Assembly (NCBI GenBank): GCA_012549035.1
Contig: GCA_012549035.1_4805.1
Length of the DNA stretch: 64,000 nt
Direction: 5' to 3' (one strand)
DNA from: a phage
The notes below the pieces were generated by a model that searched no databases, was not told where the DNA came from, and saw nothing but the letters and a program-made list of their open reading frames with translations. Shown here one piece after another: positions 9,331-30,840 of the stretch. Numbering within the stretch: position 1 is the first letter of the stretch; each line of letters opens with the position of its first letter. A program made the position numbers and the translations under genes.

Positions 9331-9717
9331 TCAAGTAGACACTGGAAAGCTTTGTTTTACTTCCACGGCAAGGCAAGACGTCCAACCATCTTGGTCAAAC
9401 CATGTCGTTTCATCTTCCATCTTGTACGTTTTGCCACCAAACACAAAATAGTCGCCGGAAGCGTCGCGGTCAAGGTCAACAATGTCTTTGTCCACCCAGA
9501 TTTTGACATAGTTCTTTTGAAGCTCTAAACCAAGCTCAACGTATTGGTTTCGAAGTACAGCCTGCACCGAAGCAAGTAAGGTGATTGGTTCTTCATATGT
9601 AGTGACATAGTTGCGCATTTTATCAAGGGTGCGCCCCTTGTACATGTAATATTGAATCGGTTGGCGACCGATAACCTTTGTCGCAACTCGATATAAGTTT
9701 ACGCCAGGAATCCTCAC
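9331..9717 (-). CDS. hypothetical virion protein (128 aa)
   Basis: ORF in connector region. Confidence 0.5.
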   Translation of the reverse strand: MRIPGVNLYRVATKVIGRQPIQYYMYKGRTLDKMRNYVTTYEEPITLLASVQAVLRNQYVELGLELQKNYVKIWVDKDIVDLDRDASGDYFVFGGKTYKMEDETTWFDQDGWTSCLAVEVKQSFPVST

Positions 9718-10178
9718 CAGAATACCCCACCAATTTTACGAAATCCTTCGCGCTCTGGAAGACCACCGAATGACAAGCCACCAACGGCCAATGCTTGAAG
9801 AAGCGCCCACAACGCCATGCCATATGGAGTGCTTGATAGCCAGTATTCCCAGCCATCACTCGCAGGCGGCGCGACTTTGTTCACTGTGATGTCACCAATT
9901 GTTGCGCCAGTCACGAAGCCGCCTTGTTCAACTCCGTCACCAGAAGACACAGACACTTGTTGGTCTGCGGCTATGCATAAAAGATGAGCCGTCATATATT
10001 CCAATGCCAGCTCCAATTTACTGCCATTTAAAACACGACAAGGACTGTCTTGTGATTCAATAAATTCACATGCCATGTCATAGAATACTTGAAGTGTTGT
10101 GTCAGGGAATTTAACCTGATCAGCAAACTGTGGAAATTTAATTCTGAACTTTTCGTAATCTAATGACATGGCATTCAC
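9714..10178 (-). CDS. hypothetical virion protein (154 aa)
   Basis: ORF in connector region, 4-nt overlap with downstream gene. Confidence 0.5.
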   Translation of the reverse strand: MNAMSLDYEKFRIKFPQFADQVKFPDTTLQVFYDMACEFIESQDSPCRVLNGSKLELALEYMTAHLLCIAADQQVSVSSGDGVEQGGFVTGATIGDITVNKVAPPASDGWEYWLSSTPYGMALWALLQALAVGGLSFGGLPEREGFRKIGGVFW

Positions 10179-10183
10179 CTTAT

Positions 10184-10648
10184 TTAAACGCGGAATAAAT
10201 CATCTTCTTGGTCGCCGCTCAACTTTACCTTGATGCGCTTGTCAGCAGTTTCGCGCGTCATAGGCGCAAACGGGTCGTCTGACATGCTGCGAACTTCTTT
10301 AGCGACGGCTTTGTGATTGCCAACAATGTCGTGATTTACGACTTTCACCAAACCTTTTTCAAGATGCTGCTTAAACACGTGATGATCTTTCAGATGCTCA
10401 AAATCTGCATCGCTTACAACGGTGACGATTCCTTCAGGAGTCCACAAAGGTGCACCGTCAGCGCCTTTTGCCATTTCACCAAAGCCGGAAGTTGCTGAAG
10501 TAAGACCAGCGCCACCCTTGATCAGAATCTGTTTGCGGATGTTTGGAAGAGCGCCTGAACCAGCTTTTGCATTCGGGTTTTCTTTCACTTCCGTATAGAA
10601 GGTGTAGTTAACTGACATAGACATAGTTGAAACGATGTATTTTGACAT
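10184..10648 (-). CDS. hypothetical head completion protein (154 aa)
   Basis: First ORF downstream of the capsid gene. Confidence 0.5.
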   Translation of the reverse strand: MSKYIVSTMSMSVNYTFYTEVKENPNAKAGSGALPNIRKQILIKGGAGLTSATSGFGEMAKGADGAPLWTPEGIVTVVSDADFEHLKDHHVFKQHLEKGLVKVVNHDIVGNHKAVAKEVRSMSDDPFAPMTRETADKRIKVKLSGDQEDDLFRV

Positions 10649-11917: not shown

Positions 11918-12556
11918 TTAACGAGTCAATTGTACAATGGTATAAGTGGAAGACTGGACGCTTGGGCCGGAAAGGGCAATAGCAGTCGGGTCAATCACGA
12001 TACCGCCTGGAATGGCAACCATGCCAGTTGGCAGTGAGCCAGTGTAGGCGATAATTGCACCGATAGGCAAGTTGTTCGGGTTGTTACCGCTGGAAATGCC
12101 TTTAGGTACATAAGCGAGCAGGTCGCCGTAGTTCAGCGTCTGCGGACTGGTGCTTGGGTTGAATACTTCAACTACGAGGCCCGTGCACATATCGTAGAAC
12201 TCGCCTTCGCTATATTGAGGCAGAACCATGCTGGCGCCCAAAGGACCAGTAGAGTTGCCATACAGAGCGTAACGCTTGCTGTTGCCAAGGATGCCATAGT
12301 AATTGGTGCCGCCCAGTTCAACTTCAAAGTCCTGCGCGCCCAAGGTTTTGGTTTGACCAGTACCCATTAAAGATACGTCATCTTTAAAACCAAACACACG
12401 GCTAATGGCGTTTACGTTTGCACCGTCGTTGGCGCTAACGATTCGGCCTGGCTTCCCACGCTGTGGGCCGTCGCGAACGATGTCGCCAGGAAAGCCAGTT
12501 GTATATTGACGGCCTACACTAGTTTGGAAAGTCATGTTTATTCCCCTTTCAACCAA
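11918..12556 (-). CDS. head structural protein (212 aa)
   Basis: Gly-rich ORF between scaffold-like and capsid genes. Confidence 0.55.
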   Translation of the reverse strand: MVERGINMTFQTSVGRQYTTGFPGDIVRDGPQRGKPGRIVSANDGANVNAISRVFGFKDDVSLMGTGQTKTLGAQDFEVELGGTNYYGILGNSKRYALYGNSTGPLGASMVLPQYSEGEFYDMCTGLVVEVFNPSTSPQTLNYGDLLAYVPKGISSGNNPNNLPIGAIIAYTGSLPTGMVAIPGGIVIDPTAIALSGPSVQSSTYTIVQLTR

Positions 12557-13956
12557 GCTTCAAATGCTTCGTCAGTTGCTGCAGAATCCGCAGCGGCCTT
12601 TTGTTTTGCGACTACACGCTGTTTTTGACCGTGTTCAACGCCGCGCAGATAATTATCCACAACGTCAAACTCAGCACCATCAACGCACTTCAAGCCTAAC
12701 TTTTTAGCGCCATATTTCGCTACGGACTTGGAGTCCATAGTTGCATGATCAAAGGCACCAACAACTTTAGACAGGCGCTGGTAGAGGCTATTCTTACGAG
12801 CAGAATCAGCGTAGAAAGCAGCAACTGCTGAATCAGATGCCATTGAGTGTTCCCCTTTTGCTGGACCTGGCGACGCTTTCGCCGCTTTTGTCGGTTTGTC
12901 ATCTTTTTCGACCGAAGCCCCCTTTACGTTGCTGTTTTGCAGGCCGCTAACCACATCTTCAGCTTTGTCGCAAGGTGATACATCTTCAGCCTTGACTTCA
13001 ACTTCTTCGTCTTTGACTTCGGCTTCAACTTCTTCTTCATCACCTACCGCGCCACCTTTCAGTTTTGCAATAAGTGCTTCGATTTGGCTGATCAATTGCG
13101 GAAGTTCGCCGCCAGCGTGAGATTCAGTTTCAACTTCAAACTTCTCTTCACCTTCTGGGGTTTCTTCTGCTTCTGCCTTGACTTCTGGATCAACCATTAC
13201 TTCTTCACGATTTTCGGTTGAGTCCTTCTCTTCTGCTTTCACTTCAACTTCATCCTGATGAGCAGCTTCAGCACTCTCTTCGTTCAGAAATTGTTCGAGC
13301 GCAGGGATCAGTGATTTCAGCTGTTCAACAGCATTATCACGCGCTTTACCTTTTAACGGTTTTGGCATGTCTAAATCCTCGTTGGATGGTGTTACAGTCG
13401 TCAAACAAAGATGGTCAAAGCAACGACCATCCAGCACCCGTGCACCTGGTACTCGACCAACGTCCACGAGAGCAATGTGGTTGCCGCGAAGAGTTGTCTG
13501 CACCACTTCATACGGCTGCCCGTCAAACTCTCCAGACTGTATGATGAATTCACAGTCATAGCCCAAAGACAAGTCAACCTTTCCAGAATCAATGGCCTTC
13601 TTCAGACGACGGCTAAACACTTTAAGGTCGCCGCGCATCCATGGCTTGTCATAATAAACATTGCCAGTCAGAACGCCATCAACTCCATACTCTTCGGGTG
13701 CTGTGTTATCCTCATCACCTTCAAATCCAGAAAGCATTTCGTGATTGTCGATGAAAGGGATATTTTTGAATGAATCTATCGCTTCGGGGTCTTTCACCGC
13801 TGACTCAGGGCGATAGACTTTTACGATGCGATTCGGATCACCATCAAGACCAACTTGACCAGCAGAATAATCAAAAATGCCAAATGACGAAATTGGACAA
13901 CCCATAATCGTCAAGAATCCATTTTTGTCAATTTCGCGTGCCGTTTGCATTCGCAT
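12538..13956 (-). CDS. scaffolding / prohead protease-like protein (472 aa)
   Basis: First gene of head operon; globular N-terminal half followed by a highly acidic E/K/A-rich C-terminal half typical of scaffold proteins. Confidence 0.6.
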   Translation of the reverse strand: MRMQTAREIDKNGFLTIMGCPISSFGIFDYSAGQVGLDGDPNRIVKVYRPESAVKDPEAIDSFKNIPFIDNHEMLSGFEGDEDNTAPEEYGVDGVLTGNVYYDKPWMRGDLKVFSRRLKKAIDSGKVDLSLGYDCEFIIQSGEFDGQPYEVVQTTLRGNHIALVDVGRVPGARVLDGRCFDHLCLTTVTPSNEDLDMPKPLKGKARDNAVEQLKSLIPALEQFLNEESAEAAHQDEVEVKAEEKDSTENREEVMVDPEVKAEAEETPEGEEKFEVETESHAGGELPQLISQIEALIAKLKGGAVGDEEEVEAEVKDEEVEVKAEDVSPCDKAEDVVSGLQNSNVKGASVEKDDKPTKAAKASPGPAKGEHSMASDSAVAAFYADSARKNSLYQRLSKVVGAFDHATMDSKSVAKYGAKKLGLKCVDGAEFDVVDNYLRGVEHGQKQRVVAKQKAAADSAATDEAFEAWLKGE

Positions 13957-26778: not shown

Positions 26779-26995
26779 CCTGCCGCGCAGGAGTGTACTG
26801 CAAAATTCCTGTGGGTACAAAATAGTACGGTACTGTCTAGGGCTTTTTCTTTGAAAAGTTAGTGGACCAAATGTGTCGTATTTTGATTAGTGTACCGCAA
26901 ATTTCATCAAGTACCAAAACGCACCAAAAGACCCATGCCATAAAAACCACACGAACGCAATAATCAATCGCCGTTACAGTTTCCAGCGTTACAAT

Positions 26996-27056
26996 TCGAA
27001 AGCGAATGATTCGACGCATAATAATATGAAGCACAATGATTCGAAAGCGAATGATT
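26996..27056. repeat. direct repeat ATTCGAAAGCGAATGATT x2
   Basis: Two copies about 44 bp apart inside the 600-bp non-coding gap. Confidence 0.6.
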
Positions 27057-27373
27057 GTGTGTAGGATAATATCGGTGGGGATTATTCGAGATGCATGTAA
27101 TTTCGCATGCGTACTATTTTCGGGCGAAGGGTCGGCATATTCCTCGTTTTAGTTCGGAACGAAGGGAAAGTTTTGCGCCTTTATAAAACAACGACTTACG
27201 CGACCCGCCCTAACGGTCCGATATAGGTGTCTATATAAAACAAGGACTTACTCGATGTTCTCCATTTAACGTAATACCTGTTATGCGAACTAAGGCGCAT
27301 CTCGATGAAGATTATGCGACGAAGAAGGGAAGGATAAAGGAGTTTTTTGCGGAGAAGCGCATCGAGATAGGGA

Positions 27374-27401
27374 CGAAGAAAAGCCGCGACTAAGCGCGGC
27401 C
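27374..27401 (-). terminator. intrinsic terminator (minus strand)
   Basis: On minus strand GCCGCG-cttagt-CGCGGC followed by TTTTCTTCG, 26 nt after stop of 27427..27636. Confidence 0.55.
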
Positions 27402-27426
27402 TATTAGTAACGGTGGGTGATTATAA

Positions 27427-27636
27427 TTAAAGGAATAATCCGGCGCGTTTAATTTGCCCAAGGACGTTATCGCGACGGCGACGCATAACCGCGTATTTAA
27501 CTTCTTCTTCGTATCCCCAGCCGCCGATGGATAACATCGCGTTCATATTATCGCATAATTCCTTAAGCTCGCGAAACATATCGATTACGGCGGTGCGATG
27601 GGCGCGCGCGTTAAGAGAGTTATTCATATTAGTCAT
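27427..27636 (-). CDS. hypothetical protein (69 aa)
   Basis: RBS AAGGAG; second gene of a two-gene minus-strand operon; CpG-rich codon usage. Confidence 0.55.
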   Translation of the reverse strand: MTNMNNSLNARAHRTAVIDMFRELKELCDNMNAMLSIGGWGYEEEVKYAVMRRRRDNVLGQIKRAGLFL

Positions 27637-27646
27637 TTTCTTCTCC

Positions 27647-27937
27647 TTAAAGGCTTACGATTTTAAAGTAAGTTACTTCGCCGCCGAGTTGCGGTACAGC
27701 GATATATTCGCCGCCGATTTCGGTGATCGTATAAACGAATCCGTTAATCGTTACGCGGTAGGATACGATGTCCTCGTCGCGATACTTGTAAAGGTCGAGG
27801 AAGTTGATCGGCTCATAAATAGACTCGATAATCGCGTCGACGTTAGAGAGATAAACGCTCTCTAAGGTTTCGCCAAATACGTTAGAGTTTTCGGAAGTTT
27901 CGACGCGAGCGGCGCGGATAGCGGATAAAGTAATCAT
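27647..27937 (-). CDS. hypothetical protein (96 aa)
   Basis: RBS AGGAG 6 nt upstream of ATG; preceded by promoter cassette and leader hairpin. Confidence 0.6.
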   Translation of the reverse strand: MITLSAIRAARVETSENSNVFGETLESVYLSNVDAIIESIYEPINFLDLYKYRDEDIVSYRVTINGFVYTITEIGGEYIAVPQLGGEVTYFKIVSL

Positions 27938-27961
27938 AATATTCTCCTAGTTAGTCGGGAG

Positions 27962-27982
27962 GGTAGCGACCTATTCGCTACC
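27962..27982 (-). promoter_or_regulatory. conserved 5'-UTR hairpin (cassette copy 1)
   Basis: On minus strand GGTAGCGA-atagg-TCGCTACC flanked by GGGA...TCCC; covaries with copy at 28524..28544. Confidence 0.45.
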
Positions 27983-28004
27983 TCATCCCCTCTCGATATA
28001 AAAC

Positions 28005-28033
28005 ATTATAGCCTTAGTGTACGAATAAGTAAA
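28005..28033 (-). promoter_or_regulatory. promoter cassette copy 1 (TTTACT-N17-TATAAT)
   Basis: Minus-strand GCTTTACTTATTCGTACACTAAGGCTATAATGTTTTATATCGAGAGGGG; near-identical to the 28473 and 28403 copies. Confidence 0.5.
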
Positions 28034-28043
28034 GCACTTTTCG

Positions 28044-28346
28044 TTATTTTGCGATAAAATATTTGTAAGCCTTATCGCCTTCTACGTCGATATACTCGAC
28101 GATAATTAATGCTTCGCCGCGCGGCGTAACCGTCTCGATAAGGGTAACGGCTTCGTCGTCGGTCTTCGCGAAGCGGATGGCGCTACGTTCGGCGTACTTG
28201 ATATCGTCGAAGGAAAGACCGACGAAGGCGACCGCGCGGACCTTAATGGCGCTAGATTCTAGTTCGGCGTTAACGGCGGCGATAAGAGAGCGAACGGTTA
28301 AACGGTCTTCGTCGTAAGTAAGGATGGAAGAGATTAAAGTGGTCAT
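28044..28346 (-). CDS. hypothetical protein (100 aa)
   Basis: ATG at 28346 with GGGAG-TTTTATT-ATG arrangement identical to neighbouring genes; track N-terminal TTG extension rejected. Confidence 0.55.
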   Translation of the reverse strand: MTTLISSILTYDEDRLTVRSLIAAVNAELESSAIKVRAVAFVGLSFDDIKYAERSAIRFAKTDDEAVTLIETVTPRGEALIIVEYIDVEGDKAYKYFIAK

Positions 28347-28402
28347 AATAAAACTCCCGATGCTAGTGGAAGGAAGGGCCATCGCCCGTCTCGATATAAA
28401 CA

Positions 28403-28430
28403 AGTATACGTGAGTGTACGAAGAAGTAAA
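28403..28430 (-). promoter_or_regulatory. promoter cassette copy 3 (TTTACT-N16-TATACT)
   Basis: Minus-strand CTTTACTTCTTCGTACACTCACGTATACTTGTTTATATCGAGACGGG. Confidence 0.45.
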
Positions 28431-28472
28431 GAAAAAGATAAATAATTTATCTCATTTTTATCGAAAAAGTGC

Positions 28473-28500
28473 TTTACTTTTTTCTACACTATATTATAAT
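28473..28500 (+). promoter_or_regulatory. promoter cassette copy 2 (TTTACT-N16-TATAAT)
   Basis: GCTTTACTTTTTTCTACACTATATTATAATGTACTCATATCGGGACGGG upstream of gene 28570. Confidence 0.5.
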
Positions 28501-28523
28501 GTACTCATATCGGGACGGGATGA

Positions 28524-28544
28524 GTTGACGAATAGGTCGTTAAC
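28524..28544 (+). promoter_or_regulatory. conserved 5'-UTR hairpin (cassette copy 2)
   Basis: GTTGACGA-atagg-TCGTTAAC with compensatory changes relative to the 27962 copy; followed by CTCCC-AAACT-AGGAG-ATG. Confidence 0.45.
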
Positions 28545-28569
28545 ACTGCTCCCAAACTAGGAGTTTATT

Positions 28570-29208
28570 ATGGCCAGTTTGAATCGTTTCTCCACCAGCG
28601 GCGACGTAATCGCAACCAAGACAGCCGACCTCGTTGCATTCTATAACGAAAATTCAGGCTCAAAGCCGATTAAAAAATTCGCGGACCGCCGGACCGCCGA
28701 GACTCGCGTAATCGCGTTAATCGAGTCCTTAAACGCGCTCGATGAGCCGTCCAACGAATCGCCCATCCCAGACGTGAAGGCGCGTGAGGAAGTGTCCAGC
28801 GATGTAAAAACGCATAAGGCGCGTGCGGTCGTTAAAAAGGCTGAGCCGACCCAGGAAGAACTCGACGCGATGAGTGATGAAGAGTATGAAGCCTTCGTTA
28901 AGAGCAGCCTTAATAGCGCTCCGGTTGGCGCTCCGGTTGGCGCGGATAAAATTGCCAGCCCTTCCCATCGCCGTTCGAATAGCGAAGGTATTGCAAAAAG
29001 TTGGGATAACAAGGAAGTGGCGCAAAAGCGTCTCACCCGTAACGGCGTTATGGTCGAGGGTGTAGGCGAGTTCAAATCGGTCCGCGTAGCGTTCGCCGCG
29101 CTGGGATTACCGGATAGCAAGCACATTCGCTTCCGCATGAAGCTTAAAGAAGCTGGACGCTTGAACTTCGAGTTCGGCAACAAGTCCTACACCTTCCAGA
29201 TTATCTAA
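28570..29208 (+). CDS. hypothetical protein (212 aa)
   Basis: RBS AGGAG; CpG-rich codon usage; Ala/Pro-rich linker APVGAPVGA; terminator directly downstream. Confidence 0.65.
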   Translation: MASLNRFSTSGDVIATKTADLVAFYNENSGSKPIKKFADRRTAETRVIALIESLNALDEPSNESPIPDVKAREEVSSDVKTHKARAVVKKAEPTQEELDAMSDEEYEAFVKSSLNSAPVGAPVGADKIASPSHRRSNSEGIAKSWDNKEVAQKRLTRNGVMVEGVGEFKSVRVAFAALGLPDSKHIRFRMKLKEAGRLNFEFGNKSYTFQII

Positions 29209-29215
29209 TCGAATG

Positions 29216-29237
29216 GCGGCCCTTCGGGGTCGCTTTT
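29216..29237 (+). terminator. intrinsic terminator
   Basis: GCGGCCC-ttcg-GGGTCGC followed by TTTT; mirror image of the stem at 26752. Confidence 0.6.
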
Positions 29238-29258
29238 CATAGTGCAAATTGGTGGCTT

Positions 29259-29522
29259 ATGAATACGCTTATTCTCATCGCTACGTTGTCCATCGGAAGT
29301 GGTCGCACCTTATCCCTTTATGATCATAGTGCAAATTGCGCTTACCCAACGCGCGTTGCGGCGATAGTTAATAGTGCAAATCGAATGCTATTCGAGACTT
29401 GTTGGCGGGTCGATAACGAGAAAGGGCGCATCGTCTTAGGTTATAGTGCAAATCTGCTGGTGGAGTCGTTCGACTGGACGGCGGAAGGTCGTAAATTGTT
29501 ACGTAAAGTGACTAAAAGATGA
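29259..29522 (+). CDS. possible small protein (87 aa) overlapping repeat array
   Basis: ORF with island-type codon usage; three in-frame motif copies each encoding SAN; may be non-coding. Confidence 0.35.
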   Translation: MNTLILIATLSIGSGRTLSLYDHSANCAYPTRVAAIVNSANRMLFETCWRVDNEKGRIVLGYSANLLVESFDWTAEGRKLLRKVTKR

Positions 29523-29583
29523 CTTATAATAATACACTTTCTAACGCGTTTATGGCTGCAGCCTTCCCCGTCGTATTACCGAT

Positions 29584-29624
29584 GGCCCTAGAAGTGGAGA
29601 AAATGTGTTCTAGGGCCGTTTTAT
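29584..29624 (+). terminator. terminator-like inverted repeat
   Basis: GGCCCTAGAA-N14-TTCTAGGGCC followed by GTTTTAT. Confidence 0.45.
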
Positions 29625-29636
29625 AGTGCAAATTGG

Positions 29637-30110
29637 CTAGTGGCGGGAGAATTGCTCACCCTCTTTGGCCGCCTCTCCAAAATCCTTGTAGAAATCGTCC
29701 ATGGAACGGCCCATTTTACTATTGCCATTCTCATCAATCATCGTGATGCCGTAGATGATATTCAGTTCACGAATGGCATTAAGCTTGGCTGATGCCGCGA
29801 CTTCTGGATCACGCACAAGCTTCACTAAATTGTGAATGGAACTCTTTACACTCCACAATTCCTTCAATGGCATCTCTTCCATACGCTTTTTGTAGCGCAT
29901 CTTGTAGTACGGATTGCGTTGCGTGCAGAGGATTCGCTGGCCAGTGTAGTTATCGGTCGCAACCTCCATGCCAAATACTAGTGCAAAAGCTGCGCGCATG
30001 TCATGGCCCTGAATAACAAGGTCAATGAACTCATCGAATAATGCCTGATTATGCTCTGCAAATCGCGGGTCTTCAAAGTCTTCAGGCATTGCTACATAAT
30101 CTTGACTCAT
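29637..30110 (-). CDS. hypothetical protein (157 aa), possible small terminase-like DNA-binding protein
   Basis: ATG at 30110 lies inside a motif copy; track TTG extension to 30305 rejected; weak resemblance to small-terminase N-terminal helix pattern, identity uncertain. Confidence 0.55.
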   Translation of the reverse strand: MSQDYVAMPEDFEDPRFAEHNQALFDEFIDLVIQGHDMRAAFALVFGMEVATDNYTGQRILCTQRNPYYKMRYKKRMEEMPLKELWSVKSSIHNLVKLVRDPEVAASAKLNAIRELNIIYGITMIDENGNSKMGRSMDDFYKDFGEAAKEGEQFSRH

Positions 30111-30338
30111 AGTGCAAATCCCATAGTGCAAATTAATAGTGTGAATTATACAATGATTGAACATTATATTCAAGTGCAGATTGATGTTCAAATTGGCTGT
30201 AAACGTACATAAATCATAGTGCTGAATGAATATCGGACCGTGGTGCGTGGTGTACTGTTTGATACGTATAAAAGAAATCCATCCCTTTCGCCGCTTGTTA
30301 TGCAAATCAATGACTTAGCCGCTGCTGGCTGGTTGAAG

Positions 30339-30612
30339 CGTATCATGACGTATCATCCGTATTGCCGCAAGTCTTTGTTTTTACTTATATCTTACGGATA
30401 ATACGTTAAATATATAAATTAACATAAGTATGAGGATGTAGAAAAAAATTAATTTAAATTAATTCAAAATGGAGTTAATTAATTTTTGAAATAATTCTGG
30501 TTACAATAAGGAAAAATGGCGTATCATCCGTATCATCCGTAAGATTCAGTGTACAAATCCAGGCGCGGCGCACCCTAGCGCCATGATACGGATAAAAACC
30601 TATCCGTAAGAG
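30339..30612. repeat. iteron-rich intergenic region B
   Basis: CGTATCAT(G/C) tandem units at 30339-30364 and 30519-30547; 29-bp segment GCGTATCATCCGTATCATCCGTAAGATTC identical to 14265-14293; AT-rich palindromes at 30410-30490; AATCCAGGCGCGGCGC x2. Confidence 0.7.
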
Positions 30613-30840
30613 TGTACGCTTCAAGCAAAGAATCCAGGCGCGGCGCGGCTTTCGCCACCACACACCACGGTTCACTCTCCAAAATCCGCACACTAAATTC
30701 CAAAATCCAATGCTCATACTCCAAAAATAAATCAAAATTTCCATTTTATTTATTATTTTCATCCACAATATCCTAAATTCTATCCGTATCAACCATGCCT
30801 CAACCCACCACTATTCACGCCACTCACTTCAAAATTTCCA

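Follow-up and report, generated by a model that had tools for sequence, protein, structure and literature searches.

The 11-mer array and the small terminase gene

We analysed a 64,000-nucleotide stretch of phage DNA (GenBank assembly GCA_012549035.1, contig GCA_012549035.1_4805.1; hereafter the window), in which a short 11-mer, ATAGTGCAAAT, is repeated in and around a gene for a small terminase subunit (TerS). The window belongs to Wifcevirus, an E. coli myovirus, and shares 90-95% identity with RCIP0319, WFH, WFC, Ro157lw, Bas98-101 and Mansfield; the group is distantly akin to the Pseudomonas Pbunavirus group (PMC11990801). At the locus, the plus-strand genes gp4 and gp3 are each followed by a terminator hairpin, and the TerS gene reads toward gp3 from the minus strand (Table 1).

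Seven exact copies of ATAGTGCAAAT, all on the plus strand, were found within 29239-30133, and neither strand of the window holds another; dinucleotide shuffles gave a mean of 0.10 copies and a maximum of 2. An earlier note on this DNA had described these seven copies and at least two degenerate ones, and both counts hold, with 3-4 degenerate copies located and about ten copies in total. Matches with two mismatches were not enriched over the whole window (22 found, 27.7 expected), so the signal consists of the exact and near-exact copies. The motif is confined in the same way at genome scale: in the complete genome of Bas99 (68,355 bp) it occurs nine times at one mismatch or fewer, in the array only and in a single orientation.

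The copies cover about 990 bp at irregular spacings of 13 to 486 bp, and the compact part of the array is a five-copy cluster upstream of TerS, 245-362 nt from the genome end mapped below. Three tandem copies, 13-14 bp apart, lead into the gene: the proximal TerS promoter has its -10 hexamer right against the first of them, and the last overlaps the start codon. The earlier note had this last copy containing the TerS ATG, and the overlap is real, but the copy at 30109 takes in only two of the three ATG bases (30110-30108, minus strand). The degenerate copy at 30136-30146 is invariant in nine wifceviruses, and the related contig L012 keeps a degenerate copy at the same TerS position as 29978-29988. 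Both TerS promoters (30191-30163 and 30173-30145) are sigma70-like sites distinct from the motif.

The tandem copies also create an upstream open reading frame (ORF) of five codons at 30107-30124 on the minus strand (ATG GGA TTT GCA CTA TGA), and its stop shares bases with the start codon of TerS (ATGA). This ORF is probably a by-product of the motif, because the upstream ATGs of L012 lie in a different frame. Two other descriptions of the array were tried and rejected. As the earlier note had already judged, it is not a CRISPR, the unit being an 11-mer spaced at 13-486 bp with copies inside genes, whereas CRISPR repeats are at least 23 bp long and set apart at regular intervals by unique spacers. 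A promoter family was set aside since the motif is limited to one 1-kb stretch, and inspection found no -35 partner or sigma54 -24 element at a fitting distance.

Table 1 Features of the array locus in window coordinates. Motif copies are placed on the strand that reads ATTTGCACTAT.
Feature	Position	Strand	Remarks
Direct terminal repeat, 3544 bp	26927..30470		projected onto the window from relatives; PMC6563267, PMC6753283
gp4, 212 aa, phrog_4730	28570..29208	+	conserved as far as Pbunavirus
Terminator hairpin after gp4	29211..29238	+	-18 kcal/mol
Motif copy	29239..29249	-	1222-1232 nt from left end; between gp4 terminator and gp3 start codon
gp3, 87 aa	29259..29522	+	conserved small protein; hosts three motif copies
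Motif copy	29326..29336	-	within gp3, in frame, encodes HSAN
Motif copy	29371..29381	-	within gp3, in frame, encodes NSAN; N-S-A invariant across homologs
Motif copy	29443..29453	-	within gp3, encodes YSAN; exact Chi 2 nt further on
Terminator hairpin after gp3	29581..29625	+	-24.7 kcal/mol; between convergent gp3 and TerS
Motif copy	29623..29633	-	between second terminator and TerS stop codon; Chi-like site 2 nt further
TerS gene, 157 aa	29637..30110	-	profile match 7UXE, Foldseek, Mansfield annotation
Degenerate copy CTAGTGCAAAA (top strand TTTTGCACTAG)	29978..29988	-	in TerS, encodes AFAL, N-terminal helical region
Motif copy	30109..30119	-	overlaps TerS start codon; third of three tandem copies
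Motif copy	30123..30133	-	TerS 5' leader; second of three tandem copies
Degenerate copy ATAGTGTGAAT (top strand ATTCACACTAT), 9/11	30136..30146	-	abuts -10 of proximal TerS promoter
Two overlapping sigma70-like promoters of TerS	30145..30191	-	TTGAAC-17-TATAAT, TTGAAT-17-TATAAT; predicted by consensus scan
Weak copy, 8/11	30171..30181
Degenerate copy ATAGTGCTGAAT (top strand ATTCAGCACTAT), one inserted base	30216..30227	-	outermost, 244-255 nt from left end
17-nt inverted repeat around cut	30389..30545		ATCTTACGGATAATACG 30389-30405 / CGTATCATCCGTAAGAT 30529-30545
AT-rich quasi-palindrome with left physical end	30444..30496		termini of five records; repeat analysis

The 157-aa protein has no Pfam match, and its PHROG is without an assigned function. 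A profile built from it and five homologs matched a single PDB entry, 7UXE (E=1.3e-45, residues 4-151), which is reportedly the small terminase of Pseudomonas phage E217 described by Lokareddy et al. in 2022. With an AlphaFold2 (AF2) model of the protein (predicted local distance difference test, pLDDT, 72), Foldseek likewise gave 7uxe_A as the sole significant match (E=5.5e-6), followed by the TerS proteins of PaP3 and NV1. The structural alignment with E217 TerS has 38% identity, and the model fits the TerS fold, which combines a helical N-terminal domain, oligomerisation helices and a short beta C-terminal part. The Mansfield protein, 100% identical to that of the window, is called 'terminase small subunit' in GenBank. 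Because profile, Foldseek and annotation agree, the small-terminase-like gene of the earlier note is settled as TerS, and this identity is not new. In Bas99 the large terminase (TerL) gene lies 8.7 kb from TerS, and no second TerS is annotated.

The array within the terminal repeat

For WFC and WFH, Korf et al. gave the length of the terminal repeat as about 3.7 kb (PMC6563267), and the Mansfield record was opened at repeat boundaries predicted by PhageTerm (PMC6753283). In WFH, WFC, Ro157lw and SP13, the opening 3.5-3.9 kb of the record recurs at its end with zero mismatches. The first base is identical in 5/5 records of near-identical phages (these four and Mansfield, from four groups), with the boundary between TTAATTAACTCC and ATTTTGAATTAATTT; a right repeat boundary between GGGTCTTT and TGGTGCG is common to four of the five. 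On the window the left physical end maps between 30470 and 30471, 360 nt upstream of the TerS start codon, and the array therefore lies about 245-1232 nt inside a 3.5-kb direct terminal repeat. No copy was found in the window beyond the repeat boundary at 30470. It also follows from the mapped end and the repeat that the top strand of the genome is the minus strand of the window, on which the motif is ATTTGCACTAT. Since the TerS gene is on that strand too, ATTTGCACTAT is probably the functional reading.

The mapped end coincides with a centre of symmetry. The arms of the AT-rich quasi-palindrome, AAATTAATT at 30456-64 and AATTAATTT at 30477-85, are centred on 30470.5, which is the cut site, and the wider 17-nt inverted repeat (94% complementary) is centred on 30467. 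ACGGAT/ATCCGT hexamers are enriched about 25-fold around the cut, with 7 of the 41 in the window falling within 30345-30795. The array stands on one side only of the cut site. The same design, in slightly different words, was found in L012, L013 and L145; L012 retains the cut sequence itself (AAATTAACTCC before the cut, ATTTTGAAAAC after it) with inverted repeats of its own centred there, and in every lineage compared the AT-rich block lies 355-390 nt upstream of the TerS ATG. At the other boundary of the repeat, 26927, there was no structure like that of the left cut region.

We then looked at how far the array follows the gene. TerS homologs were rare in the protein database (six clusters, 45-99% identity), and an IMG/VR scan for TerS relatives gave close relatives only. 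By contig, TerS identity was 70% in L012 (72.5 kb), 50-53% in L013 and L145, and 45% in L014; in Pantoea phage Kyle, gp4 is 47% identical, and the record begins 356 nt before gene 1, at the TerS position. In each of the five, ATYYGCACTAY occurs 7-10 times, always on the TerS strand, over a stretch that reaches from about 100 nt upstream of the gene to some 900 nt downstream of it; the flanking DNA is unalignable. In L014 the motif is mostly ATCCGCACTA. Across the genus, a smaller share of columns varies in the motif than elsewhere in the region (4/88 versus 147/1235, Fisher p=0.036).

Serratia phage MyoSmar, whose TerS is 35% identical, has the same layout from end to TerS: its PhageTerm-predicted repeat is 3,559 bp long, and the gene of its TerS homolog starts 387 nt from the repeat extremity and reads inward. 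Candidate equivalents of the array, CTAACACTCA in four copies found only near TerS in Pbunavirus Pa193 and CCACCAGC in MyoSmar, did not rise above shuffles and were rejected. The latter word, also considered as a second phage motif ('motif B'), proved to be the complement of Chi.

A candidate terminase recognition site and its alternatives

The recognition sites of lambda, HK97, P22, SPP1, Sf6 and P1 lie in or beside the TerS gene. In the window, too, the array lies beside a mapped end, in and beside the TerS gene, and its sequence is unique in the genome. We therefore place first the reading that the array is a terminase recognition element of the pac or cosB kind that at the same time overlies the promoter and start codon of TerS; we hold it at about even strength. 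It ranks first because the array is genome-unique, polar, adjacent to a mapped end with a symmetric cut, and conserved with the TerS lineage. On the three points by which the earlier note had proposed to judge a packaging or operator role, the motif is not dispersed, a terminus lies nearby, and the adjacent protein is a small terminase; none of the three counts against such a role.

On this terminase reading, about ten copies would begin some 245 nt inside the left end and run inward for 1 kb through the TerS promoter, start codon and body and on into gp3. A TerS ring oligomer, homologous to the E217 decamer, would load on these one-orientation sites in concatemeric DNA and bring the large terminase to the AT-rich quasi-palindrome; cutting there, between 30470 and 30471, would produce the left end. 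Packaging would then run toward the array. With three tandem copies lying across its transcription start and ATG, TerS would also be able to repress its own synthesis; overexpressed TerS lowers the infectivity of E217 (PMC9611059), which fits a need for tight TerS control. From this arrangement we infer that TerS reads the sites, that packaging runs in this direction and that TerS regulates itself. A 13.4-bp lattice that would match a decamer ring was also considered. The L012 spacings (26, 14, 30, 12, 12 and 13) are suggestive, and the lattice is not claimed because the weak copies of the window at 278 and 290 fall off it.

A close parallel is lambda cos, in which cosN, the cosB R-sites for gpNu1 and the Nu1 gene follow one another as a symmetric cut, one-sided recognition words and the TerS gene do here. 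As in lambda and at the pac sites of P22, SPP1, Sf6 and P1, the TerS start lies a few hundred bp from the end and the site is unique in the genome. The differences are that wifcevirus ends are a 3.5-kb direct terminal repeat rather than cohesive ends or headful cuts, and that the wifcevirus site is a candidate. T7, a phage with fixed ends, has short direct-repeat arrays, SRL and SRR, flanking its terminal repeat; these lie outside the 160-bp repeat, are built of heptamer units and are not tied to a TerS gene.

Several results weigh against a terminase recognition site. The copies are scattered irregularly, partly in coding sequence, over about 990 bp and lie as much as 486 bp apart, whereas known cosB and pac sites are tighter, with 3-7 elements in about 100-300 bp. 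TerL is 8.7 kb distant from TerS. No repeat array above shuffle level was found in MyoSmar or Pa193. In vitro, DNA binding by the E217 TerS, a clear homolog that forms a decamer and whose gene is likewise distant from that of TerL, was not appreciable (PMC9611059). The remaining points against it concern T5-like phages: T5 and Pectobacterium phage My1 carry arrays of the same core at the same extremity of the terminal repeat, no TerS homolog was detected in T5-like phages, and no ORF of the window matched the T5-like loci compared, about 10 kb around the arrays. Pbunaviruses, the genus of E217, are reported as headful packagers with circularly permuted DNA (PMC12345254).

Public records already include both the TerS annotation and the terminal repeat. 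Neither the 11-mer array, nor the symmetric cut-site architecture, nor the core shared with T5 was found in the literature searched, and a search for the motif string returned unrelated primers only. For E217-type TerS, which has a solved structure, we know of no DNA site, and the array offers a concrete, conserved candidate target sequence. A left cut site with symmetric flanks and a one-sided array within 1.3 kb also bears on how terminases set the boundaries of multi-kilobase repeats.

The three tandem copies between the TerS -10 hexamer and ATG, and the copies standing directly after both terminators, would also suit operators, at which a phage regulator times the expression of TerS and of gp4-gp3 and packaging plays no part. 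The regulator could be gp4, TerS acting as a repressor, or a 69-aa protein of phrog_10377, a small regulator-family protein encoded within the repeat (27427-27636, minus strand; PHROG 10377, annotated 'transcriptional regulator'). We think operators alone improbable. Most copies lie inside or downstream of genes rather than at promoters, the motif is non-palindromic, of single orientation and spread over 1 kb, and the fixed relation to the physical end and the parallel with T5 would be left unexplained. For gp4 in particular, a Pfam I-HmuI NUMOD-like match speaks in its favour but is weak (E=0.039, one member), a single-sequence AF2 model was unusable (pLDDT 45.6) and no PDB relative was found, so that we set it aside as a rival binder; it is also conserved in Pbunavirus, where the array is undetected.

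A replication origin seems to us still less probable, indeed hardly so. Here the copies would act as iterons, or as weak sites resembling DnaA boxes, to load an initiator, and the AT-rich block at 30400-30500 would be the unwinding element. An AT-rich block with adjoining direct repeats does have the look of an origin, and a gene for a VirE-domain DNA primase lies just upstream of the repeat, outside it, in MyoSmar. The virion ends map to that very block, however, and no initiator gene is adjacent. The reverse complement of the T5 repeat described below, ATTTGCACA, is one position off the DnaA box TTWTNCACA, but the wifcevirus motif is two positions off this consensus, position 9 included, and no canonical DnaA box was found near the terminus in the window and seven relatives. 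The spacing of 13 to 486 bp also differs from the roughly 20-bp tandem spacing typical of iterons.

A core shared with T5 and My1, and other features of the repeat

We scanned IMG/VR for two exact 11-mers within 41 bp. Besides wifceviruses and irrelevant 9-bp tandem repeats, the scan returned My1, a T5-like siphovirus with nine one-orientation copies of (T)GTCGGATTT(G)CAC; the unit is (T)GTCGGATTTGCACTAY, and two of the nine hold the exact 11-mer. They lie at 12351-13294, at the non-coding inner edge of a 12,854-bp terminal repeat, six inside it (355-503 bp from the repeat end) and three outside. T5 itself has an annotated 'direct repeat D' (DRD), TGTGCAAATCCGACA (reverse complement TGTCGGATTTGCACA), with nine copies in one orientation at 9672-10409; the repeat ends at 10139, again with six copies inside and three outside. 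The core ATTTGCAC(A/T) is common to the wifcevirus 11-mer, T5 DRD and My1, and the wifcevirus array likewise has the DRD core word GGATTTGCAC(A) in about nine one-orientation copies.

In T5 and My1 the end of the repeat doubles as the right physical end, and the geometry therefore matches as well. The in-repeat copy nearest to the physical end is 244 bp away in T5, 245 or 325 bp in the window and about 355 bp in My1, and in all three GTGCAAAT reads toward the nearest physical end. A second scan, for pairs of GGATTTGCAC, gave contigs with 4-9 one-orientation copies of ATTTGCAC that are mostly 96-123 kb long, the size of T5-like phages; about five fall outside this range (L208, L211, L234, L235 and L239), and only My1 and T5 were identified as T5-like. 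Another, with pairs of TGCACTAT, was too permissive, yielding chance hits and tandem repeats, and was dropped. By tblastn, the T5-like phages gave no homologs of TerS and gp4, and the ORFs of the window, all searched against about 10 kb around the T5-like arrays, gave no match.

The shared core makes a reader that works across families, possibly a host protein, a serious rival to TerS. The array would then be the wifcevirus version of the T5 DRD terminal-repeat signal, and some factor present in both families would read it, with TerS a mere neighbour; we regard this as possible, though not probable. The factor would most simply be an Enterobacterales host protein that binds or translocates DNA, or else an unrecognised shared phage protein, and we give these options no greater strength. 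At the terminal repeat it might define or process the boundary, pause DNA entry as proposed for the T5 injection-stop signal, or handle exposed ends, again possibilities that we hold tentatively. The T5 repeats do lie in the region discussed as that injection-stop signal, although no function has been established for DRD itself (bioRxiv 10.1101/866236).

What speaks for a shared signal is the core itself in about nine copies of like orientation at a similar distance from the end, in phages without a detectable common protein at these loci. The dispersed, strictly polar and coding-tolerant layout also resembles the signals of translocating enzymes, correctly oriented Chi clusters occur in the same segment of Kyle, L013, L145 and MyoSmar, and the report of no DNA binding by E217 TerS agrees with it. 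The flanks, by contrast, differ and are strongly conserved in each family (T5 has GTCGG at the 5' side, wifcevirus CTAT at the 3' side), which is more typical of phage-specific readers; wifcevirus copies are missing outside the repeat boundary, the TerS lineage shows drift in the motif (L014 has ATCCGCACTA), and MyoSmar lacks it. Arrays of GGATTTGCAC also occur in a few unrelated IMG/VR contigs, as sigma54-promoter-like or 21-bp iteron-like units, so the short core could be convergent. Pure chance is unlikely, given the full 11-mer in My1 and the matching geometry.

T5 (DRD in Repeat Region 3; Wang 2005 annotation, AY587007; Davison, bioRxiv 10.1101/866236) and My1 nevertheless differ from the wifceviruses in setting. 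Their copies occupy a large non-coding stretch to either side of the boundary, with no TerS gene nearby; those of the wifceviruses are all inside the repeat and interleaved with genes, overlapping TerS and gp3. The families are unrelated. The comparison of the array with pac sites and with operators or iterons in the earlier note has come through in part: TerS, a terminus 360 nt away and a motif unique to the locus bear it out, while the sharing of the T5 DRD core weakens a reading that is purely TerS-specific. The terminal repeat around the array and the core shared with T5 had both escaped that note.

In its widest form, the idea of a shared signal would group the 11-mer with the T5 and My1 arrays in a single class of polar terminal-repeat signal, present in unrelated Enterobacterales phages with long terminal repeats and served by a common reader, probably a host protein or translocating enzyme. 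We consider this doubtful. Such a signal would mark one extremity of the repeat and might, with the same doubt, govern boundary cutting, duplication, protection from RecBCD or a pause in DNA entry. If it is true, the compact wifcevirus repeat becomes a tractable model for the fifty-year-old question of the T5 repeat region. The link to T5, which ties together two unrelated families and opens a route to telling packaging, DNA entry and a host factor apart, is the part that a specialist would find surprising. One unrelated 38.7-kb IMG/VR contig has, at L235:8150-8560, a dense TTGGCATGG(G/T)ATTTGCA(C/G) array that fits the sigma54 -24/-12 consensus.

Of the two small genes beside TerS, gp3 had been called a dubious ORF; it is a conserved gene with homologs in L012, L013 and L014, a signal-peptide-like N-terminus, two invariant Cys and a C-W-R motif. 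The copies at 29326, 29371 and 29443 start at offsets 67, 112 and 184 of this ORF, all 1 mod 3, which agrees with the in-frame placement in the earlier note, and motif copies within gp3 always use the frame encoding x-S-A-N/D. gp4 keeps its place beside TerS in Wifcevirus and as far as Pbunavirus (Pa193 gp02 is 39% identical), has an invariant C-terminal block, PxSKHIRFRMxLK, and contains an extra motif copy in some relatives. The two terminators already proposed were confirmed as hairpins with z of about -4 that are annotated as terminators in WFH/WFC, each with a motif copy directly after it.

An exact Chi, GCTGGTGG, lies at 29456-29463 (+), 2 nt after the motif copy at 29443, and a Chi-like GCTAGTGG at 29636-29643 (+), 2 nt after the copy at 29623. 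The terminal repeat holds one exact Chi per orientation and two Chi-like GCTAGTGG sites, the further positions being 28362-28369 (+) and 28592-28599 (-), and each exact Chi is oriented for recognition by RecBCD entering from the nearer physical end. One-orientation Chi clusters near the same end hold nine exact sites in 2 kb in Kyle (L172), six in 1.8 kb in L013, five in 2 kb in L145 and four in 340 bp in MyoSmar (L016). Terminal Chi clusters are known in P1 and some lambdoid phages (PMC12315714), and we found no report of them in the literature for the wifcevirus group.

About 23 nt beyond the right repeat boundary, at 26889-26904, TTAGTGTACCGCAAAT resembles the motif interrupted by a 5-base insertion; WFH, WFC, SP13 and Mansfield all keep it, and it may be due to chance. 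Protein hits place the gp4 gene on contigs of 3.2-3.9 kb, about the size of the terminal repeat, in dozens of public assemblies. This suggests that the terminal repeat is often assembled apart as a double-coverage contig, and that wifceviruses are common as contaminants or residents of E. coli sequencing runs.

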